A stretch of 64,000 nucleotides of DNA from IMG/VR virus record IMGVR_UViG_3300042341_001047; one strand, 5' to 3'. The notes beneath the pieces are model-generated. The model searched no databases, was not told where the DNA came from, and saw only the letters and a program-made list of their open reading frames with translations. Each line of letters begins with the position of its first letter. Position 1 is the first letter of the stretch. Both the position numbers and the translations under genes were made by a program. Shown here one piece after another: positions 12,801 through 52,409 of the stretch. This DNA comes from a virus.

Positions 12801-13154
12801 AATTTTAGTGGGTACGTTGGATATACTGTTCAATCAACTTTTAATTATGTAATAGATAACATTAAATTTATAGAGATTGATATGATTCCCTTTTTCCAGT
12901 ATTTCGTTGAATCAAATATTAATAAAGGTATACAAATTCCTTTTCAAGGAATATCACCTTATATAGATTATAGTAATCCATTCTTTAATTTCTTAGATAA
13001 TATATCACTTGGTGTTAGCAGTATTGCTGTATCAAATTCAAATGTTGCAGTTAGTGGAGTAGGTGTTGGTGTTTCAACAAATAATCCACCAGCAAATAAT
13101 CCAGCAGGTGGATTATTTGAGACCGGAATAGGAACTGAGGGTCGAGGTGATTAG
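9816..13154 (+). CDS. large probable virion structural protein
   Basis: 1112 aa; GVWENGVWNSGW and GYFRGVWNYG repeats shared with the neighbouring gene. Confidence 0.6.
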   Translation: MSWNTSVSGISSADWRLTTIGTGGPTPIRMRVNSQVSPSKLTTLTYVSSTNYQFKSGKTYQFVTDVYYYMNNLNPNSASFSISTPIETVSNFQWDESLDYNKFKGTSPSILGTGTSVGRFPGITNSNFYFYATPPSDISTKNIIEYNANNKFGTASNTETISAGITNFNLSEMDYRIQGFAFYKWGDAPYSRAGTSSTFTGAYPQNGLGWTYDANYNSGELLHWYDDSQVNLNPVGGGRTTKIGSVGYRQNNYIAKFVPYTYFNFSFNYQNQHGDFPLEIYLSSTLPTNNPGSFSKPTNALLIGTLTQSISVIAGVTYSSRSYSIPHKFFSLEGGRYIYFKGPFVGTQSSATYSSIFITDIVVEGGYHPGNNEQYQTSNVTSIIPYGLIGATYSTYVGNGNTINATQSLSISQINANIGNGTFKSGVWENGVWNSGWRYDDSVQEFSKIYQYFTYNKSKRWRIQIEGPSDAVNSFEIGDKVSIGNIIAIDINENRKTIKGYFTIIAKTDFTIIVEFDNDFPLRRIEKDSDNHRIYVTKNVWLSGAFFNGYFRGVWNYGLFRGYPMITEMYDTHWVDGIFDGGHFNTSYYTVPKFVDTLFYPNETFGGRVGLTFSSKHGLAVGDTILVDKDNKNINPQYDGETTIDNVINDYHIVTALPWGNDSTSEGGTVSVTLSKGVVQKMQFKSKNRSKITSNQSLESTSVFIYDSWMDVNYYNTSAVNIGKPQSLVNTLSGKDYSENNLYGYPTNDVLESSSTFRDSFSTTIREYSLGTKYKIFNNYIGDAGNFQEQFGSTRDYNPIGTPTESVERNSSDSKFINLGWTYSRYNASSLTFSRTFDLGEEGVIGQELLVRAIGRGGILDIYPLTDDEIIANRTNDTIKKLRYTAIEFDLVSHSELLEDGGTFIESSVPTLPILTKKSLFPTGSQGGYPIPMLHFNNINTTLRNIYYSTLGAGGGTVSTIIPASYLPISSNVNHLSTSKKRKIEYFYNKKNLSMNFSGYVGYTVQSTFNYVIDNIKFIEIDMIPFFQYFVESNINKGIQIPFQGISPYIDYSNPFFNFLDNISLGVSSIAVSNSNVAVSGVGVGVSTNNPPANNPAGGLFETGIGTEGRGD

Positions 13155-13864
13155 ATTTTATTCTTTTTCAATAAAAGGTAACCAACTTTACCAGGCTCTG
13201 TTTTTGAAACATTACCCATAGCAGGTATTTTTGTCTCATCACCTTCTAATTTGATTTTAGTTATTTTTTGTTTTCCTAAAATTCTTTTCTCACCATTACA
13301 ACTCTTACAAGGATTCAAACCAACTTTACCTTTACCCATACAGAATGAGCAATCATATCCCATGTATTTACCACTACCATCACAGAAGTCACATCCATCA
13401 TCACCATCAAAAGTTTTAAGTATATTACCATCAACATCTTTAATAACTATCTTAGAAGACATATCTTTACCAGTTCCGTCACAAGGTTTACATTTAACAT
13501 ACCTTTCATATTCTATATTACCATCAAATGAATCATCAATATTAATATAGATATCAAGTACTTCTGTTTTCTTAAAGTTGTCTAAATGGTCTTTACTTTT
13601 ATGATAATCAAACTCAACATTTATTTCAAAAAACTCAAAATACTCATTATAGTTATTTCCAAACTTACTTTTAACATCATAATCTTTTCTTTGTTCTCCG
13701 CAAAGTATATCATATGCTTCTGTCATTTCACCAAAAGTAACTGGATCCCCACCTTTATCCGGGTGGTGTGTAAATGAAAGTTTATAATAAGCCTTTTTTA
13801 TTATTTTTTCATCGGAATTATTATCAACTCCAAGAATTGAATAATAGTTTTTATTTAAATTCAT
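13151..13864 (-). CDS. dnaJ: DnaJ-like co-chaperone (J domain plus Zn finger, no G/F region)
   Basis: NYYSILGV, HHPDKGG, four CxxCxGx(G) motifs. Confidence 0.88.
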   Translation of the reverse strand: MNLNKNYYSILGVDNNSDEKIIKKAYYKLSFTHHPDKGGDPVTFGEMTEAYDILCGEQRKDYDVKSKFGNNYNEYFEFFEINVEFDYHKSKDHLDNFKKTEVLDIYINIDDSFDGNIEYERYVKCKPCDGTGKDMSSKIVIKDVDGNILKTFDGDDGCDFCDGSGKYMGYDCSFCMGKGKVGLNPCKSCNGEKRILGKQKITKIKLEGDETKIPAMGNVSKTEPGKVGYLLLKKNKI

Positions 13865-14066: not shown

Positions 14067-14256
14067 TTTTATTCAGTATTTGTTCAATTTTATAGTCTCT
14101 ATTTTTTCTAAAGTTTATAATAGAGAATGATTCTTCAGATCTAAATCCACAATGTTTACAAATATAAACGAGTGGTTTTGGAATGTATCCATAATTAGAA
14201 ACAGGTTCTGAAAGACTTGTTTTAATATCAGTAGATTCACATTCTGGACAATTCAT
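14056..14256 (-). CDS. tagged Zn-ribbon protein
   Basis: CPEC...CKHC; RDYKIEQIL. Confidence 0.7.
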   Translation of the reverse strand: MNCPECESTDIKTSLSEPVSNYGYIPKPLVYICKHCGFRSEESFSIINFRKNRDYKIEQILNKNEL

Positions 14257-14546
14257 ATATCTAATATCTGATTAATTTTTTTTTCTCTTAAAATTGCTTT
14301 ATTTGTTCTTTCAAATTCACCTCTTTCATCTTTATAACCACAATCATTACAAATACTTTGTGATGGAATAGTCGGTTTAGAACCATCGGTTGGTATAAAA
14401 AACTTCCATTTAATATTCTTACTTTTACAATTCGGACAACCTGATAAATCTTCTAAAGTTCCTATAAATCCTGACTTTTGTAATTTTCCTAAATCATATG
14501 TTTTATTACTTTGATTAGGAAACAAACTAAGTAATTTTTTAATCAT
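14253..14546 (-). CDS. tagged Zn-ribbon protein
   Basis: CPNC...CNDC; REKKINQIL. Confidence 0.7.
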   Translation of the reverse strand: MIKKLLSLFPNQSNKTYDLGKLQKSGFIGTLEDLSGCPNCKSKNIKWKFFIPTDGSKPTIPSQSICNDCGYKDERGEFERTNKAILREKKINQILDI

Positions 14547-14740: not shown

Positions 14741-15547
14741 TTATTTTATAATACAATAGATTGGACAATGGTCCGATATTTTTCTAGCTAACTTTAAATC
14801 TTTAAAGTCATTAAAGAATAAGATAACATCACTTTTACTTAAAACTAGTAGTGATGATATAAAAAAGTTATCATATTCCATATTTAACTTAACACCATTA
14901 TCTTCTTTCATTTTAAGTGAAGTCTTTTTACCTATCAAGGTTGGTTTAGACCATTTTTTAAGTTCATTAAATCCAGGGTCAGATTGTGATAAATTTAAAT
15001 CTCCCATTATAATTATTCTTTTATCCTTGTAAGTATTTTTCAATGTTGCTAAATGAACTGCCTCCAAAGCTGGATTTTTATCAGTTGGGACTAAGTGTTC
15101 ACTGAAAAGATAATATTCATTATTCTTAAATATAAAAACTGCTCGAAATGGTTCTCTATTTATTTTATCTTGTATAGACTTCTCTAGTCCAGATTCTTTT
15201 AATTTAACTCTATTTTTTTTATATAAATAAGCGTATCTTTCCGAACCATCACCAGTTGTTGGATCAGAAACAACATAGTCCCAAGATGTTCCAGTTCTAT
15301 CTAATAAGTCATCTAATTTAGCAACCGCTTGTGCTCCAAATTCAGAAGTAGATACTTCTTGAATAGCAATAATATCGTAGTTTTTAATTTTATTACAGAT
15401 ATAATTCATTGTAGTATCATTTTGTGATTTACTTCTACCAAAGTTTTGAATATTCCAAGATATTATATTTAGATAAGATGTGTCTGTCTGTGAATATCCA
15501 AATAGTGATATAAGACAAAATAGAATTGATAATTTTAATCTTTTCAT
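14741..15547 (-). CDS. DNase I-like exonuclease/endonuclease/phosphatase with signal peptide
   Basis: SWNIQNFG, DIIAIQEV, ERYAYLY, REPF, GDLN, SDHCP; hydrophobic N-terminus. Confidence 0.88.
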   Translation of the reverse strand: MKRLKLSILFCLISLFGYSQTDTSYLNIISWNIQNFGRSKSQNDTTMNYICNKIKNYDIIAIQEVSTSEFGAQAVAKLDDLLDRTGTSWDYVVSDPTTGDGSERYAYLYKKNRVKLKESGLEKSIQDKINREPFRAVFIFKNNEYYLFSEHLVPTDKNPALEAVHLATLKNTYKDKRIIIMGDLNLSQSDPGFNELKKWSKPTLIGKKTSLKMKEDNGVKLNMEYDNFFISSLLVLSKSDVILFFNDFKDLKLARKISDHCPIYCIIK

Positions 15548-15612: not shown

Positions 15613-17145
15613 ATGTTAAAAAGATACTTTGATTTTGTAAATGAATCTCTAAACTTAATACTAGAGTCCGATGTTGTTTATTCTAGTAAACTTAGAAATG
15701 TATTATCTAAAATAGATAGTGAAATCTCTAGAAAACTTATTGAGATAGAAAATAGAGACCTTCCAGTTAGAAGTAACTATTTTGATATCATTTCAGATAA
15801 AAATGATATGGTTTCATTTATACCAGATAGAAAAGCTCAAGAAATACTTAAAGATGTTAAAGAATTCTGGAGATTCAATGGATCTGGCGGAGGTTGGTTA
15901 AAACACTCAGAATCAAATGCTGAATTGTTTTCTAAATTAGGATATGTTCCAGAAGGAAATCCTTATTCACCAAACTCAAGAGATATTGGTGAAATAGTTG
16001 CAGAAACTACTTCAGAAACATCTGGTAACACATATTGCTGGGTTAAATTCATGAATGGTACTGGAGAATATATTGGACAAGGAGTTTATAATAAAGAAAA
16101 ACTTATAAAAGCAGAAGGAATTAAAGAGAAAGAAGTTTGGACTAAAAGTAGACAAGAAATCGGTGTAGGTAGAGGAATTAGAGCTTTATTATTAACAACT
16201 GGTGAAAAGTTTTTAGATAAAGATATTGAACAATTTGTTAATATTTATAAAGCAACAATTGATAAATTAAACGATAAGTTTAGTTTTTTTGAAGTTGTTA
16301 GTGGAACAGATATTCATTATTGGTATAATTATGATAATTATTACCAAAGAAGTGGATCATTAGGAAGTTCTTGTATGGCAAGTGCAAGAGCAAGTTGGTT
16401 AGAAATATACACTGCTAATCCAGAACAATGTTCAATGGTTATATTCAAATCACCAGATGATATTAATAAAATAGTTGGAAGAGCTATCTTATGGACTTTA
16501 ACAGATGGTAAAAAGTTCATGGATAGAATCTATACTATAAATGATTCAGATGTTCAGTTGTTTAGAGAATACGCTAAAGAAAATGGATGGTATGCAAAAT
16601 ATCATAATAGTAGTACATCAAATTCCGATGCTTACGCACCAGATGGTACAAAAACAAACTTGAATTTAAGGGTTAATCTTTCTCAGAAAGACTACGACTA
16701 TTTTCCTTATTTAGATACTTTAAAATATTTTACACCAGGAAGTGGAATATTAAATAACACTGATGGTGAATATGCACTCGAAGATACTGGAGGTGGTCAT
16801 TCATCTTGTGATTGTTGTGGTGGAAGTGGTAGAACTGAATGTGGTGATTGTGATGGAAGAGGAGTAGAAGACTGTAGTAATTGCGATGGAAGTGGAAAAG
16901 AAGAATGCTCAGAATGTGATGGTAATGGGAAAAACACTTGTAATAATTGTGATGGTTCAGGAAAAGTAGAAGATGATGAAGGAAATGAGATTGATTGTGA
17001 TGAGTGTGATGGAGATGGTGAATTAGAATGTGATGATTGTAATGGAAGAGGTAAAGTAGATTGTGATGAGTGTGATGGAGATGGTGAACACGATTGTAAT
17101 AGTTGTGGTGGAGATGGTGAAGTTGATTGTTACGAATGTAACTAA
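15613..17145 (+). CDS. head-leader protein with SCM/RAILW/MDRIY domain and C-terminal CxxCxGxG array
   Basis: Paralog of 33339..34292; nine CxxCxGxG repeats plus terminal CxxC. Confidence 0.7.
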   Translation: MLKRYFDFVNESLNLILESDVVYSSKLRNVLSKIDSEISRKLIEIENRDLPVRSNYFDIISDKNDMVSFIPDRKAQEILKDVKEFWRFNGSGGGWLKHSESNAELFSKLGYVPEGNPYSPNSRDIGEIVAETTSETSGNTYCWVKFMNGTGEYIGQGVYNKEKLIKAEGIKEKEVWTKSRQEIGVGRGIRALLLTTGEKFLDKDIEQFVNIYKATIDKLNDKFSFFEVVSGTDIHYWYNYDNYYQRSGSLGSSCMASARASWLEIYTANPEQCSMVIFKSPDDINKIVGRAILWTLTDGKKFMDRIYTINDSDVQLFREYAKENGWYAKYHNSSTSNSDAYAPDGTKTNLNLRVNLSQKDYDYFPYLDTLKYFTPGSGILNNTDGEYALEDTGGGHSSCDCCGGSGRTECGDCDGRGVEDCSNCDGSGKEECSECDGNGKNTCNNCDGSGKVEDDEGNEIDCDECDGDGELECDDCNGRGKVDCDECDGDGEHDCNSCGGDGEVDCYECN

Positions 17146-17555
17146 TCTATAACTTGATTAATTTTCTTATCTCTTATAAATGATCTATATATCTGGAAAT
17201 ATTCAGATTTCTCAGATGCTATTGTTTCTTCAAAATTACTATAATTTAGTTCAATTTCAATTGAAAGTGGTATAAAATTACCATACCAATCAAAACAATC
17301 ATTTTGTATTTTTACAATAGTGGATGAATTAAATATACTAAGAACCTTAAATTGATCAAAAATTATAATTGTTCTTTTATCAAAAACATCAATAGGATCA
17401 TTGGTATACTTATTCATCCATTCTTTGAAAAATCGGATAGAATTTTCACAATTTGTAGTAACCTTTATATAAGACCTACCTGTTTCAGATACCATATTAA
17501 CTTTAGATATCTCACCTATAACATTTAATCCATTTTTGTCATCTATTAAAATCAT
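17142..17555 (-). CDS. tagged protein, possible degenerate tail-tube-like fragment
   Basis: FFKEWMN...KRTIII...FDW...SIEIELNY; RDKKINQVI. Confidence 0.55.
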   Translation of the reverse strand: MILIDDKNGLNVIGEISKVNMVSETGRSYIKVTTNCENSIRFFKEWMNKYTNDPIDVFDKRTIIIFDQFKVLSIFNSSTIVKIQNDCFDWYGNFIPLSIEIELNYSNFEETIASEKSEYFQIYRSFIRDKKINQVID

Positions 17556-17842
17556 ATACCTAAATCTTTTAGTTTTATTTGTCTATTTATATTTTTAAGA
17601 CATAATGAATAATCATAAATACTACAATTGTAAACTTGTTTACAATAATCATCTATTATTTTATCGCAAGTATTCCAATCAATAAACTCACCATCGGGTA
17701 TTAATATATTAAATATTTCTTTTGATTTAATACGCTCTTTATCTCTAGCAATAGCAGCCTTCTCATATTTTTGACAAAAAATAGCTTCTTGCTTTTCTTT
17801 CATAGCTTTAAGATATTCTATAATTAAATTATCAATTTTCAT
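17552..17842 (-). CDS. tagged UVR (UvrB/C, ClpC M-domain-like) coiled-coil protein
   Basis: KEKQEAIFCQKYEKAAIARDKE; RQIKLKDL. Confidence 0.7.
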   Translation of the reverse strand: MKIDNLIIEYLKAMKEKQEAIFCQKYEKAAIARDKERIKSKEIFNILIPDGEFIDWNTCDKIIDDYCKQVYNCSIYDYSLCLKNINRQIKLKDLGI

Positions 17843-19580
17843 AATTAAGATTCACTTCTTCAATTGATGAGAATATTTCCTTATTTATTTTTAGTATCCT
17901 ATCAAACATTTCCTGGTTCAAAATAGCATGATGTACAACAAATATATTAATGTTATAATCGTTTGCAAATGACTTTAATAGTGCTAAAATAGAATCTATA
18001 CCTTCTATGTCAATTGAAGAAAAAACTTCATCTAAGAAGAGAATATTGATATGCCTTTTAGTTCTAATTAACTTCAAATAAGCAATTAAGATACTAATAT
18101 TTACTTTTTTAGTTTCTCCAGTTGAAAGTGAATCATGTTCAATTACAGAACCCAATTGTCTTATTTCAGCAGTGAATGTTTCATCTAACTTAACATCAAA
18201 TGGTAACATCATTTTTTTAATATTCTCAGATATAAAATGATTAATTGGTTTGATAATACCAGAAATGATAGACTTCTTAACACCATCTTCACCAAAGATA
18301 CGATTTAGCTCTTTGTAATAAAGTTCTTTTTCTTTACAAACGGTAATGTTATCACTACTAACTACTTTCTTTTCCTCAAGCTCTTCAATGGTATTTTGAA
18401 ACTCTTGAATATTAATAGAAGGTGTTGTATTAGTAGGTGCTTTTTGACTAGCTTTCTTTTGAGTTAGTTTTTCAATCTCAGATTTATAGCTTTTAAGTAA
18501 ATAACTTAAATCATTAAAAGAGTTTGTTGTTGTTTCAGATAAACCCTTTAACTTAATTTGTCTTTCTTTTACTAATTTTATATTATCTTCAATCTCAGAT
18601 TTAATTTTCTCATATCCAGCTTTCTTTTCAACAAAAGAATCTCTTAGCGTAACAAAGTGATCAGAATTAAAATCTGTTCTACAAGTGGGGCATTTACCAG
18701 AGTCATATAAGTCAATTTCTCGTTGTACATTTTTAATATCATTTTGTGTATTAATATACTGCTTTTTCTCATTATCCAATTCATTATTTAATTCGGTTTC
18801 TTTTTCCTTGATTTTATCCATCTTTTCTTTCAAAGATTTATAATCATCTTTTCTAGAATTCATCTCATTTGTGATTCTATCAATCTCAGATTGAATATCT
18901 TCTTTCTCACGTTCTAAGGCTAGTCTGGCTTCTTCTTTTTGTCTTTCAATAGCTTTATCAATAGACCTTTGAATAGATGAAATTGAATCATCTAAAGTTC
19001 TAATTTCTGCATCAAAAGAAGCTGCTCTAGTTTTATTGTTTTTTGCGATATCTTTTAAGATACCATTTAAGATATTGATAACTTCTAAGTTGAACAACTT
19101 ATCTAAAAGAAGTTGTTTTTCCTCGTTTGAGAGTGAGATGAAGTTTTTGAAGTCATTAATAGACATTGATATAAACGACTTAAAAGTCTCTATATCCATA
19201 CCAACATACTTTTCGATTTTCTCATCGACATTAGCTTTACCAGCTCTTTCATTAACTACACCATTTTCGGTAAGTTCAAGTACACTTGGTGATATACCTC
19301 TTTTTATTTCTACCTCAGTTCCTAATGATGTAAACTTTATACGATTTAAAAGTTCACCATTAATTCTATTTGGAAGTGTTGATAGAGTAGCCCATCTTTT
19401 TTTACGACCTCTAACTTTTCCGTAAAGAGTATAATCAAATGAGTCTAATAAAGATGATTTCCCAGCTCCATTGTTTCCAACAAGAAGTATAAGTTCACCT
19501 TTTTCTGTATTTAATTTTAAAATTTGTTCGTTGTTACCATAAGATTTAAATCCTCTAATTCCTAATTCATTAATAAGCAT
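17832..19580 (-). CDS. gp46/SbcC/Rad50-like recombination endonuclease ATPase subunit
   Basis: GNNGAGKSS Walker A, CPTC hook, LSTGE signature, FLDEVFSSID, coiled coil. Confidence 0.92.
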   Translation of the reverse strand: MLINELGIRGFKSYGNNEQILKLNTEKGELILLVGNNGAGKSSLLDSFDYTLYGKVRGRKKRWATLSTLPNRINGELLNRIKFTSLGTEVEIKRGISPSVLELTENGVVNERAGKANVDEKIEKYVGMDIETFKSFISMSINDFKNFISLSNEEKQLLLDKLFNLEVINILNGILKDIAKNNKTRAASFDAEIRTLDDSISSIQRSIDKAIERQKEEARLALEREKEDIQSEIDRITNEMNSRKDDYKSLKEKMDKIKEKETELNNELDNEKKQYINTQNDIKNVQREIDLYDSGKCPTCRTDFNSDHFVTLRDSFVEKKAGYEKIKSEIEDNIKLVKERQIKLKGLSETTTNSFNDLSYLLKSYKSEIEKLTQKKASQKAPTNTTPSINIQEFQNTIEELEEKKVVSSDNITVCKEKELYYKELNRIFGEDGVKKSIISGIIKPINHFISENIKKMMLPFDVKLDETFTAEIRQLGSVIEHDSLSTGETKKVNISILIAYLKLIRTKRHINILFLDEVFSSIDIEGIDSILALLKSFANDYNINIFVVHHAILNQEMFDRILKINKEIFSSIEEVNLNYEN

Positions 19581-33338: not shown

Positions 33339-34292
33339 TTAATTATCAAATTCAAAATTTCCATCATCATCATAAAATTCTTCTTCAGGTTCAGGATCTC
33401 TTTCGGTCTGACCATTACTTTGTACTAAAATATAGTCAAAACTATATCTATCAGAGTTTGAAAATCTACCCGTATTTTCATTATAAAACTTAAAGGTATC
33501 TAAATAAGGATAGTATCTAAAATCATAATTCTCCAAGACAACATAAAGTGATTTTATACAAGGACTTCCATCCACATCAAAAATTAACTCAGATTTAGCA
33601 TTTTGTTCCCATTTTGATAAGTAACCATTTTCTTTTGCCCAATCTTTGAAAAATGCAACATCATGATCGTAGATATAATATATTCTATCCATTACTTTGT
33701 ATTCTTTTTCTATTTCTTTATGCTCTTTAACACCTTCCCAAAGAAGTGCTCTAGCTCTCACTTTTCCATCATCTTCTAAATAAACTAACATTTTAATATT
33801 AGGATTTTTAGAATAAATCTCCATGAACTTATTTCTTTCTCTTTGTCTCATACAAGAGTTCCATAAAGTTCCAATTTTCATACCATTTGACAAATGGTAA
33901 TTATCTTCTAAATAATACTTTAGAATATCTTCACCAGAAACTATCTTTAGTTTAGATTTATCTCTTGAGAAGAAAGATTTATAAAGATTTACAAATCTTT
34001 CAATTGCGTTATCATTTATATTAAAATTAGATATTGAGAACTCAGTTAGGAATTTTCTTATAAATCTACCAATTTTAATTTTTGTTCGACCTGAACTCCA
34101 AACATCTTCTACTTTTTCATATTTAGAACGAGGTAGAAAAGATATAACATCTATTTCAGACTCTTCTACTTTTATATAATTACCCTCATCGGTTAAGTGC
34201 GAACCATCACCATTTAGTAGTATTTGAGAAATGATATCTCTTGATGCGAAGTGTAAGAATTCAACAAAATTTTTATCGAAAATAAGTCTCAT
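33339..34292 (-). CDS. SCM/RALLW/MDRIY-domain protein (paralog of 15613..17145)
   Basis: GTLWNSCMR, RARALLW, MDRIY, YPYLDTFK. Confidence 0.7.
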   Translation of the reverse strand: MRLIFDKNFVEFLHFASRDIISQILLNGDGSHLTDEGNYIKVEESEIDVISFLPRSKYEKVEDVWSSGRTKIKIGRFIRKFLTEFSISNFNINDNAIERFVNLYKSFFSRDKSKLKIVSGEDILKYYLEDNYHLSNGMKIGTLWNSCMRQRERNKFMEIYSKNPNIKMLVYLEDDGKVRARALLWEGVKEHKEIEKEYKVMDRIYYIYDHDVAFFKDWAKENGYLSKWEQNAKSELIFDVDGSPCIKSLYVVLENYDFRYYPYLDTFKFYNENTGRFSNSDRYSFDYILVQSNGQTERDPEPEEEFYDDDGNFEFDN

Positions 34293-47929: not shown

Positions 47930-48802
47930 ATGAAAAATCTATCATCTCAAGTTGGTCAAACTCCACTAATTCAAATATCAGAAAGAATCTTTGCAAAATT
48001 CGAAGGTCAAAATCCAAGTGGATCCATAAAAGATAGAATGGCATCTTTTATAATCAATGATGCTGAAAAAAACAATCTTATTAAAAAAGGTGATACAATT
48101 ATTGAAGCAACATCAGGAAACTCTGGAATTGCTTTTGCTTTCTTAGCAGCAGAAAGAGGTTATAAATGTATTATTATTATGCCTTCTAATATGAGCGAAG
48201 AACGAAAACAAATGTTAAGAATTTATGGAGCTGAACTTATTGAAGTTCCTGATGGTAAATTTGATGATGCGATTGCTTTAAGAGATAAAATGGCTAAAGA
48301 AAATGGATACTTTAACCCTAATCAATTTCATAACCCTCTAAATATACAAGCTCATTATGAAGGAACGGGTGTTGAGATTCTACACCAACACACAGAGAAA
48401 ATTGCTGCTTTTGTTGATGGAACAGGAACTGGAGGTACTCTTATGGGTATCTCTCGTCTTTTAAAGATGTATCATCCATGGATGAAAGTTGTTGCTGTTG
48501 AGCCAGCAGAATCTCCAGTTATGTCAGGTGGTCAACCAGGAATTCACGGAATTCAAGGAATTGGCGATGGTTCTAAATTCTTAGTTAATCTAAAAGAAGT
48601 TGATGATATTATGATTATATCAACTGAAGAAGCTAAAGAAAGAGCTAGAAGACTAGCTAAAGAACAAGGTTTATTTGTTGGTATCAGTTCGGGAGCTAAC
48701 ATTTTAGCATCAGAAAGGTTATTAGAAAAGTACCCGGATATGGAAGGTAATATCATTACTATATTATGTGATAGAGGAGAAAGATATCTTTCTTGTTTAT
48801 AA
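47930..48802 (+). CDS. cysK: cysteine synthase (PLP-dependent)
   Basis: GQTPL, NPSGSIKDR, EATSGNSG, GTGTGGT, HGIQGIG, GISSGAN, DRGERYLS. Confidence 0.93.
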   Translation: MKNLSSQVGQTPLIQISERIFAKFEGQNPSGSIKDRMASFIINDAEKNNLIKKGDTIIEATSGNSGIAFAFLAAERGYKCIIIMPSNMSEERKQMLRIYGAELIEVPDGKFDDAIALRDKMAKENGYFNPNQFHNPLNIQAHYEGTGVEILHQHTEKIAAFVDGTGTGGTLMGISRLLKMYHPWMKVVAVEPAESPVMSGGQPGIHGIQGIGDGSKFLVNLKEVDDIMIISTEEAKERARRLAKEQGLFVGISSGANILASERLLEKYPDMEGNIITILCDRGERYLSCL

Positions 48803-50083: not shown

Positions 50084-50587
50084 ATGAAAAAAATAAAAGA
50101 TTTCAAATCATTCAATGAAGCACTAGCAGGTCATATGGGAGCGGTTCATTCAGCTACAAGGAATATGAAGTCAGCTTCTGGTGAAGAACCTTCTACTAAA
50201 TCAGATGAATTCTCACTACACATTTGTACCGATCCATTATATAAAAGGTTTGCTAACTATAACTACAAACTAAAAGATGTGGAAATTGAAAAAGTTGAGC
50301 CTAAAAAAGGATTTATGTCTAAATTATTTAGTGGTAGTTCATCTATTGATTTTACATTCACTAAAGTAAAAGACAACTCTGAAGCTTTTTTATCTTTAAA
50401 ATTAAAAGGAGATAAATTTGTTTTAGCCAATTCTTCAACAAGTGAGAACATTATGGCTACTATTCCGGATTTAGAACAAGCTAAAAAGTTTCTTAACTTT
50501 CTATTAGGACAATCCCAATGGAAAGATGAATTAACTAAGAATTTTGAAAATATAAAAGAATCGCTAACAATTGAATCTTTCAAATAA
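50084..50587 (+). CDS. putative head-targeted protein
   Basis: MKKIKDFKSFNE leader. Confidence 0.6.
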   Translation: MKKIKDFKSFNEALAGHMGAVHSATRNMKSASGEEPSTKSDEFSLHICTDPLYKRFANYNYKLKDVEIEKVEPKKGFMSKLFSGSSSIDFTFTKVKDNSEAFLSLKLKGDKFVLANSSTSENIMATIPDLEQAKKFLNFLLGQSQWKDELTKNFENIKESLTIESFK

Positions 50588-50596
50588 AAAATAAAA

Positions 50597-51028
50597 ATGA
50601 TTATGAAACACATAAGAAAATTCAATGAATCAATTGAAAACGAAGAAATCAATGAAAACGAAATAAATGAATTCTTAAATAATGGAGTTAGAATTAATGT
50701 ATTTTTAACTGATTTACTTTATGATACAAATCTTATTTTACTTATGACCAATGGTGAGATATATGAAAGAAGAGCTGGTAATAAAAAATTCACTATTTAT
50801 TCATCAAAAGATGAATTCAAATCAAAAACTGGGGCTTCTTTAGATGATGAGTATGCTGGAAATGCTTCTCCTGCTTTAATCAATCTTTTTGGTGAGGTGG
50901 ATGATTATAGAGGTGGTTTAATTGAAATGGCTTATATTGATAGCCAATTTGATAATCCACTTTTAGATAGTATTCTAAAAAACTTTGAAAATATAAAAGA
51001 ATCATTAACAATTGAGTCTTTAAAATAA
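50597..51028 (+). CDS. putative head-targeted protein
   Basis: MKHIRKFNE leader; C-terminus shared with the previous gene. Confidence 0.6.
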   Translation: MIMKHIRKFNESIENEEINENEINEFLNNGVRINVFLTDLLYDTNLILLMTNGEIYERRAGNKKFTIYSSKDEFKSKTGASLDDEYAGNASPALINLFGEVDDYRGGLIEMAYIDSQFDNPLLDSILKNFENIKESLTIESLK

Positions 51029-51667: not shown

Positions 51668-51696
51668 AAAAAAGACCAGTTTAACTGGTCTTTTTT
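51668..51696. terminator. bidirectional intrinsic terminator
   Basis: aaaaaagaccagtt-t-aactggtctttttt. Confidence 0.8.
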
Positions 51697-52409
51697 GTTT
51701 TAATATAGTTTGATAAGTTCTCCCAAAGTATTTTATAAATATCATCAAATTGATTATACCTAATTCTAATTGAATCAATATAATTATCTTCACAATAATC
51801 TTTTTTTATTTTATCTACTTCTTTAATTAAATAATGTTCTTTACTTAAATACTCAATTGTAGTTCTTCTATTAGGTAAATAAAATTGAAATATATTATTA
51901 TCTAAGTTTTTATTTTCATCATATTCAATTTGATACTTATCTAAAAACTCTTTAATATCATTTATTCCTTCTTTATCACAATTATTGATCTTATCTCTTA
52001 ATAGACTTTCCTCGTTATTTCTAAATTCAGGAGCAAGGCCTAGTAAGTGTGAGCTAGACCTTTGTTCGTAAACAATACCATTATAAATTATCTTAATATT
52101 ATTAAGAGCACCAGTATATTCAGTTAAAGAGTAATCATATTTGTCTTTCCAAATATTTTTGGCTTCTAAAATAAAATCTTCAGTTGTCTTTCTTTTAATA
52201 GACTTCTCAGGACATCTACCCATCAAATGTTTAGAGATGGATTGAGTATAAATCTCACCATTATATTCAATTTCTATTCTATCATTTAAGGTAACCTTAT
52301 CTGATAAATTTAAATAATTGTATTTATAACCGTGTGTATTTCTAGCTTTTTCTAAAAATTCTAACCTTTTCATATAGTATATATAAAAATCTTTACCTCC
52401 TTTCAACAT
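51681..52409 (-). CDS. degenerate homing-endonuclease-like protein (DUF723-like repeats plus Vsr/PD-(D/E)xK-like C-terminus; likely start at MKRLEF)
   Basis: FLEKARNTHGYKYNY, TTEDFILEAK..W.DKYDYSLTEY, FYLP...IEY...HY...DKIKKDYC...IRIRY. Confidence 0.7.
   Translation of the reverse strand: MLKGGKDFYIYYMKRLEFLEKARNTHGYKYNYLNLSDKVTLNDRIEIEYNGEIYTQSISKHLMGRCPEKSIKRKTTEDFILEAKNIWKDKYDYSLTEYTGALNNIKIIYNGIVYEQRSSSHLLGLAPEFRNNEESLLRDKINNCDKEGINDIKEFLDKYQIEYDENKNLDNNIFQFYLPNRRTTIEYLSKEHYLIKEVDKIKKDYCEDNYIDSIRIRYNQFDDIYKILWENLSNYIKTKKTS

Follow-up and report, generated by a model that had tools for sequence, protein, structure and literature searches.

The window analysed here, a stretch of 64,000 nucleotides from a giant lake phage, belongs to a 175,660-bp IMG/VR virus record that is itself a fragment. 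Its nearest neighbour among phage records is LR745206.1 (634,780 bp), from an uncultured phage. The phage genes are densely packed, with a G+C content of 28% around the gene studied here. This gene lies on the reverse strand and encodes a protein of 96 aa (Table 1); it was found at the place given in the original prediction, and the two strings quoted there correspond to residues 15–36 and 87–94. Its ATG overlaps the stop codon of the upstream gene, which encodes an SbcC/Rad50-like ATPase, by 11 nt. At the other end, the 96-aa gene shares the 4 nt around its stop with the start of the downstream gene; this 137-aa ORF, which ends in a canonical copy of the C-terminal tag discussed below, is present at two related loci (L003 and L008) and absent from three others (L005, L009 and L011). 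All-against-all BLAST gave no paralogs of the 96-aa protein in the window, and the one candidate considered, a 242-aa ORF at 51681–52409, was rejected as its weak match (E = 0.014) was not reproduced with the family HMM. The CysK-like gene of the phage is closest to freshwater Bacteroidota MAGs (64–78% identity), and for this reason Bacteroidota genomes were chosen for the searches that follow; the host phylum is likely Bacteroidota.

Table 1. The 96-aa protein gene, its parts and its two neighbours, in window positions
Feature	Positions	Strand	Basis
96-aa protein gene	17552..17842	(-)	ORF list; stop codon counted in the span
Helical hairpin of residues 9–47, very probably a homologue of the UVR-type middle domain (M-domain) of ClpC	17702..17818	(-)	Model helices 2–22 and 26–47; profile alignment
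Hairpin tip, residues 24–37, core Q-K-Y-E-K-A-A-I-A-R-D-K-E-R	17732..17773	(-)	Alignment to 6emw
C-terminal two-helix module, residues 53–96 (helices 56–70 and 78–93)	17555..17686	(-)	Model; C-half HMM
Tag-like tail R-Q-I-K-L-K-D-L-G-I, residues 87–96	17555..17584	(-)	Core tag pattern
SbcC/Rad50-like ATPase, 582 aa, upstream	17832..19580	(-)	phrog_77 (E = 1.9e-72); SMC_N, AAA_23 and SbcC_Walker_B
137-aa ORF, downstream, canonical tag (tail RDKKINQVID)	17142..17555	(-)	Tag matrix, 24.5 bits

The 96-aa ORF is a genuine, conserved gene. A word-based search found 12 close homologs, all but one of them (11/12) also 96 aa long, and in an exhaustive profile search the family comprised 95 representative clusters (E≤1e-3), of which almost all measure 90–110 aa and align from end to end. 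Mean column identity across 79 clusters is 25%, and K17, Q24, an aromatic residue at position 26, A29, R33, D/E34, E36 and R87 are kept in 89–100% of them. Longer fused forms were sought in a set of 5.8 billion proteins and none was found at E≤1e-3, a search that is in itself weak evidence. A scan of IMG/VR with the close family alignment gave 3 records only, the Protein Atlas returned a viral ‘UvrB/uvrC motif’ cluster at a sub-threshold score of 0.75, and searches of PHROGs and NCBIfam gave nothing useful. The AlphaFold2 model built from the close alignment (pLDDT 93.5, pTM 0.83) is compact and consists of the four helices listed in Table 1. When this model was compared with known structures by Foldseek (PDB) and VIA-align (wide), only generic helical hairpins and bundles were found (E≥1.1, Z≤6.2); the best matches, to the MIT domain, FliS and designed repeats, are non-specific, and chains of S. 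aureus ClpC in its resting state appear at Foldseek ranks 24 and 41 and are not significant. The protein diverges faster than SbcC, with 33–66% identity among relatives compared to 74–89%, and at one related locus (L008) it is 47% identical whereas its neighbours are 83–93% identical. Such speed would suit a protein whose interaction keeps changing, and also an accessory gene under loose constraint.

The front half of the protein forms a helical hairpin for which homology to the middle domain of ClpC (the M-domain, or MD) is very probable. When the family profile was run against all PDB sequences, M-domains of ClpC/ClpC1 and nothing else came up with E-values from 2e-5 to 1.2e-3 (12 distinct sequences, of S. 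aureus, B. subtilis and M. tuberculosis); profile positions 9–52 align with residues 418–461 of S. aureus ClpC and 419–461 of B. subtilis ClpC. Weaker matches were to ClpC1 (E = 0.03), a ClpC-like entry (0.04) and McsA (0.46). The same picture emerges in bacterial genomes: for all five Bacteroidota genomes searched, the sole significant match of the family profile is the MD of a ClpC of about 850 aa (33–36 bits, E about 2e-8 per genome). These ORFs were checked as ClpC-type and have two Clp_N repeats, AAA, AAA_lid_9, UVR, AAA_2 and D2-small domains, and the GVGF loop for ClpP. An HMM of the N-terminal half alone scores 38–42 bits on the MDs of phage ClpCs and 37.8 bits on one Bacteroidota ClpC. 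The window protein itself is 52–55% identical to Bacteroidota ClpC across 22–23 residues of the tip, and the two have in common R-D-x-E-R and a Y at the position that F occupies in Firmicutes. The 96-aa ORF stands alone and contains no AAA domain, unlike the ClpC MD, which sits within the small subdomain of AAA-1 in an Hsp100 ATPase.

The hairpin had originally been described as a fit to the UVR motif, which holds at the level of the family, where Pfam UVR (PF02151) matches 44 of 79 relatives at E<0.01 (best 2.1e-7) and one relative, P0012, carries a precomputed PF02151 match; the window protein taken alone, however, remains below the 21.5-bit cut-off of this model, with 12.1 bits (E = 0.17). 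The core of the UVR hairpin, [FY]-E-x-A-A-x-x-R-D, is present as Y26-E-K-A-A-I-A-R-D34, at the turn between the first two model helices. The more particular claim of a likeness to the ClpC M-domain is borne out, and by its sequence the hairpin is specifically of the ClpC kind, its resemblance to ClpC being much stronger than that to UvrB, UvrC or McsA. An unfiltered hmmsearch of all UVR-bearing proteins from three Bacteroidota genomes gave 29.5–29.7 bits for ClpC on the family profile, compared to 5.5–6.7 bits for UVR proteins of about 205 aa, 1.5–3.6 for UvrB and below zero for UvrC; on the generic Pfam UVR model all four kinds of protein score 28–36 bits. Since UVR motifs mediate the contact between UvrB and UvrC (Pfam description of PF02151), the protein could be a UVR module of a generic kind that dimerises, in the course of DNA repair, with a nucleotide-excision-repair protein of the host (UvrB or UvrC) or with another copy of itself, and the gene does adjoin a DNA-end-processing ATPase. 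These genome scores speak against such a module, as does the PDB search, where no UvrB or UvrC chain was matched by the family profile even at E≤10, and we consider it extremely unlikely.

The phage family keeps the contact positions of the M-domain tip while its remaining sequence drifts. Across the 79 clusters, Q24 is kept in 70, an aromatic residue at position 26 in all 79, A29 in 74, R33 in 77, D/E34 in 73 and E36 in 77. Alignment to 6emw places Y26, R33 and D34 at F436, R443 and D444 of S. aureus ClpC, the residues that make the resting-state contacts; mutation of the tip in S. aureus ClpC results in constitutive, adaptor-independent and toxic activity, and F436 is also crucial for the binding of MecA (Carroni et al., PMC5699869).

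The C-terminal half is a separate module, since the HMM of residues 53–96 finds nothing in ClpC: across 24 ClpC sequences it scores at most 0.7 bits anywhere, and the possibility that this half too is copied from ClpC was rejected. Conserved in the module are I63, Y66, Y71, R87, L91, L94, G95 and I96. The original prediction had described the end of the protein as a tag, fused to the UVR coil. A canonical tag, R-x-x-[KRNQ]-[ILVM]-x-x-[ILVM]-[ILFMY], ends 19 of the 215 ORFs in the record compared to 0.6 expected, and its core, R-x-x-[KR]-[IL]-x-x-[ILV] within the last 14 residues, is seen in 16 of the 215 tails compared to 0.45 expected. The 96-aa protein has this core, in the form R-x-x-K-[IL]-x-x-[IL], in R87-Q-I-K-L-K-D-L94, and within its family R87 is kept in 79/79 clusters, K90 in 57/79, L or I at position 91 in 75/78 and L or I at position 94 in 77/78. 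Its score on a strict matrix that summarises the 19 canonical tags is, however, only −2.4 bits (rank 40 of the 215 tails), compared to 17–30 bits for the canonical tags, owing mainly to a G where the canonical tag has L, F or Y (position +8). The L-G-I ending is itself conserved across the 96-aa family; the idea that it is kept as the ribosome site and start codon of the next gene was rejected, for at L005 the ending is kept where no gene follows in the same direction. The best non-self matches of the C-half HMM in the phage proteome are canonical tagged tails, at 91150–91668 (E = 5e-4) and 14253–14546 (E = 8e-3), both of them short matches. The core pattern agrees with the tag and the short HMM matches may point the same way, while the strict matrix shows that the tail is not a canonical copy; we therefore read it as a divergent, family-specific relative of the phage's common tag. 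The model places the tail inside the compact four-helix fold, as an integral helix and not as a free appendage.

A tag-related tail on a copied domain has another possible explanation, namely that the tagged mini-proteins are a set that copies signature pieces of the phage's core proteins. The 96-aa protein would then copy the M-domain of the phage's own ClpC, and would work through the partner of the tag, as a mimic or decoy, without regulating ClpC. The phage lineage does have a ClpC of its own, with the N-half HMM matching its MD at the scores given above, and the excess of canonical tags over expectation, the relation of this tail to them and the fast evolution of the protein, as at L008, all agree with a decoy. 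The failure on the strict tag matrix and the predicted place of the tail as an integral helix of the fold do not, and the selective conservation of the MD tip is what would be expected of a protein that engages an MD partner. On balance a decoy, which the original prediction had named as an alternative alongside a ClpC inhibitor, seems unlikely, though it overlaps with action on ClpC or its partners and does not exclude it.

The original prediction had linked the protein to the Clp protease, and the genes of the phage lineage, together with the conserved MD-tip residues and the complex prediction reported below, make such a link plausible. LR745206.1, which is complete, has a member of the family (107 bits), a 701-aa ClpC that lacks Clp_N, and two ClpPs. 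Its ClpC keeps both the GVGF loop and the M-domain (R-S-Q-K-Y-E-E-A-A-R-L-R-D-V-E-R). The family gene is never adjacent to a Clp gene; in LR745206.1 it is at 296 kb, and the Clp genes are at 424 kb (ClpC) and at 75 and 124 kb (ClpPs). ClpCs without the N-domain are common on contigs of huge phages, with at least 576 relatives; among the matches listed, the alignments start at residues 1–59 of the 701-aa ClpC query. When 20 large IMG/VR records with a phage ClpC were searched for the family, a full-length member was found in two (385 and 476 kb), and two further records have other small ORFs that carry an MD-like motif, one of 93 aa (24 bits) and one of 118 aa (20 bits). Phage ClpC does not therefore generally need the family, as most of these ClpC-bearing records have no full-length member. 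The 476-kb record (G010) has a family member, an N-domain-less ClpC and a ClpP together. The window's own record has a ClpS gene (67 bits); no ClpP or AAA_2 domain was found in its 175 kb, which, the record being a fragment, is uninformative either way. The relevant ClpC may be the phage's own instead of the host's.

It is quite possible, though tentative, that the 96-aa protein acts by binding ClpC or a partner that binds the MD. The tip of the free hairpin would dock on the M-domain tips of a ClpC-type hexamer, which might be the phage's N-domain-less ClpC, the ClpC of the Bacteroidota host, or both. Once docked, it would compete with the head-to-head MD–MD contacts that lock ClpC in its inactive form. 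The most likely outcome would be an activated ClpC/ClpP, and the alternative would be a block of MD-binding partners; taken by itself, activation as the net effect on ClpC is somewhat doubtful. For the phage's own enzyme the idea draws on work with Delta-N ClpC, which has no proteolytic activity unless the MD–MD contacts are also abolished, and which, with these contacts broken, degrades GFP-SsrA as well as the MecA-activated wild type (Jenne et al., PMC12583610). As Delta-N ClpC needs its MD–MD contacts broken, an MD cap could supply the missing activator. A free M-domain hairpin could equally deregulate the ClpC of the host or block those proteins that read the MD tip.

The original prediction had also suggested modelling the protein together with Bacteroidota ClpC. 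With the family alignment and the AAA1 and MD regions of Bacteroidota ClpC, the complex prediction gave a weak pass at 0.48 (runs 0.50, 0.45 and 0.48), graded ‘weak support’, compared to 0.00 for the best of 3 controls; the runs agree in 100% of contacts and the partner has a pLDDT of 86. Of 80 solved complexes 58 pass the mark, as do 2 of 110 mismatched pairs, and passes at or below 0.60 comprise only 7 of those 80 complexes and both of the passing mismatches. Because MD–MD contacts have already been solved, the pass may stem from likeness to these. The distance of the gene from the Clp genes, the scarcity of the family among ClpC-bearing records and the generic outcome of the structure searches all count against ClpC binding, and so do two further points. 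To our knowledge, regulation of ClpC through a resting state is established for Firmicutes and not for Bacteroidota, and the conserved neighbour and translational partner of the 96-aa protein is the SbcC-like ATPase.

This ATPase is the main rival as a partner. The 96-aa protein could serve the SbcC/Rad50-like enzyme of the phage, either regulating it or joining it as an accessory subunit, with its hairpin docking on the Rad50-type coiled coil or recruiting a factor to DNA ends. The overlap of the sbcC stop with the family start is found in the window and in 7 relatives, over 8–20 nt and down to 33% identity, which points to translational coupling. It is this small gene that follows sbcC, and not the SbcD-like nuclease, a phosphoesterase gene located about 135 kb from sbcC in the phage; moreover, a conserved internal R-Q-x-K-L-K-x-L in SbcC resembles the tail of the 96-aa protein. 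However, synteny is weak evidence here, since all the phages concerned form a single clade whose gene order is conserved, and two family members (P0064 and P0083) sit behind other small genes and not behind sbcC. Neither in SbcC nor in the rest of the phage proteome does the N-half HMM have a match, the hairpin is ClpC-type and not UvrB/UvrC-type, and the identities given above for SbcC and for the 96-aa protein give no sign of matched constraint. A role with SbcC is accordingly unlikely, about as much so as that of a decoy.

When the binding of ClpC is considered together with the tag-like helix, a more elaborate picture can be drawn, in which the phage would carry a degradation machine with this protein as its dedicated activator and adaptor: the MD copy would uncap the resting state of the N-domain-less ClpC, and the tag-like helix would join it to the approximately 20 tagged mini-proteins. 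The tag would then be a phage-private address for timed degradation or remodelling by ClpC/ClpP. We think this very unlikely as a whole, more so than either of the two alternatives just weighed. Self-association of the tags, a bridge from the tagged baits to ClpCP and the degradation of tagged proteins, all raised in the original prediction, are hypothetical.

Among known proteins the closest likeness is to the M-domain of ClpC/ClpC1 itself (S. aureus 6em8 and 6emw, B. subtilis 3pxg and 3j3s), a helix-turn-helix hairpin of equal length that the profile matches over about 44 residues, with the core Q-x-[YFW]-E-x-A-A-x-x-R-D-x-E-R and the equivalents of F436, R443 and D444 all kept. The phage protein differs in being free, 96 aa long and joined to an unrelated two-helix module, whereas the MD is an insertion in an AAA+ module. 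The PF02151 UVR domains of UvrB, UvrC and McsA belong to the same motif family, but the phage family is far closer to ClpC. We rate the 96-aa protein as a putative addition to the known phage modulators of Clp and the UVR-domain partners of ClpC. For instance, Gp53 of phage SPO1 is an adaptor-like modulator of B. subtilis ClpCP that binds ClpC (PMC6873191); in both cases a small protein encoded by a phage has a shown or proposed role in reprogramming ClpC, which for the 96-aa protein we infer, but Gp53 is not described as a copy of the M-domain. A similar example is found in plastids, where UVR-domain proteins are among the most enriched interactors of CLPC1 (PMC8889267). CLPF and the other plastid UVR proteins trapped on CLPC1 likewise combine a UVR domain with association to a ClpC-type chaperone, though they are larger and of other architectures, and that work does not establish that their UVR motif takes a direct part in binding ClpC.

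A free-standing copy of a ClpC domain also has a cellular counterpart. ClpC2 of M. tuberculosis copies the N-terminal domain of ClpC1, and not its M-domain. It has been described as a ‘partial homologue of ClpC1’ (PMC10030653) and has a regulatory or decoy role; it is comparable to the 96-aa protein as a free-standing ClpC-domain copy but is cellular and not viral. A literature search, which was not exhaustive, gave no description of a free M-domain mimic in a phage, and the reading of the 96-aa protein as a mimic of the ClpC M-domain is new.

ClpC is silenced by the contacts of its M-domains, and breaking these, whether by mutation, adaptors or antibiotics, results in proteolysis that is toxic to the cell. 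If the phage protein does act on these contacts, it would represent a new mode of Hsp100 control, by competition for the regulatory coiled coil and not by binding of the N-domain, and would give a first insight into the function of a member of the phage's tagged mini-protein family. The setting of the 96-aa family is one of giant phages whose genes also include an N-domain-less ClpC, ClpP and ClpS.

LR745206.1, the complete 634-kb relative of this phage, encodes a 701-residue ClpC that keeps the M-domain and the GVGF loop for ClpP but is without the Clp_N domain, along with two ClpP genes (loci L085 and L086; frames of 221 and 248 residues). Relatives of this N-domain-less ClpC number at least 576 and lie on IMG/VR contigs that reach 476 kb in length. 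Two further huge-phage records bearing ClpC have small frames with a motif like that of the ClpC M-domain, one of 93 residues in record G018 (locus L194; 24 bits on the profile of the 96-residue protein family) and one of 118 residues in record G006 (locus L195; 20 bits). Both differ from the 96-residue family, and small M-domain-like proteins may thus be a recurrent theme.

The phage record itself carries a gene for the adaptor ClpS. ClpS requires a ClpA or ClpC that bears the N-domain, and its partner here is presumably such a protein of the host. As to the host, the CysK-like auxiliary gene finds its matches in freshwater and groundwater Bacteroidota MAGs, although the closest of these, at 78%, may be a mis-binned phage contig; these identities support Bacteroidota as the putative host.

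Features of the window, the phage record and the relative LR745206.1
Feature	Location	Strand	Remarks
DnaJ of the phage	window 13151-13864	-	J-domain and CxxCxGxG region
Endonuclease/exonuclease/phosphatase-family protein, 268 aa	window 14741-15547	-	PF03372, E 8e-15
510-aa protein	window 15613-17145	+	C-terminus an extended array of CxxCxGxG-like zinc-finger repeats
R-Q-I-K-L-K-G-L, residues 340-347 of SbcC-like ATPase	window 18540-18563	-	within coiled coil
CysK-like auxiliary gene	window 47930-48802	+	64-78% identity to Bacteroidota MAG genes
ORF pair with common C-terminus	window 50084-50587, 50597-51028	+, +	adjacent
ClpS adaptor gene	G000:C1:136954-137148 (locus L199)	+	PF02617, 67 bits; outside window, same phage record
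N-domain-less ClpC, 701 aa	L084:256-2361; LR745206.1, about 423.2-425.3 kb	+	Clp_N absent

The tail of the 96-residue protein is nearly identical to a stretch of the SbcC-like ATPase, where [RK]-Q-x-K-L-K-x-[LI] is conserved in all nine homologs checked. The resemblance may be due to chance, the coiled coil being rich in lysine and leucine. The sbcC-like gene is interrupted in one sub-lineage (L005:2233-6011; also L006 and L200). At L005, the codons for residues 1-42 lie about 2 kb upstream of those for residues 42-580, a 513-residue ORF separates the two parts, and the interruption may be a mobile insertion (an intron, intein or homing element).

The phage DnaJ gene lies near that of the 510-residue protein, the middle of which has a paralog in ORF 33339-34292 (E 3e-33). 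In relatives, this block retains a gene for ribosomal protein S21 together with a TackOD1-like zinc ribbon. The PF03372 protein has a hydrophobic N-terminus resembling a signal peptide. Finally, the paired ORFs end in nearly identical 20-residue C-termini (80% identity, E 3e-5) with the sequence N-F-E-N-I-K-E-S-L-T-I-E-S-[FL]-K, which is distinct from the common tag.
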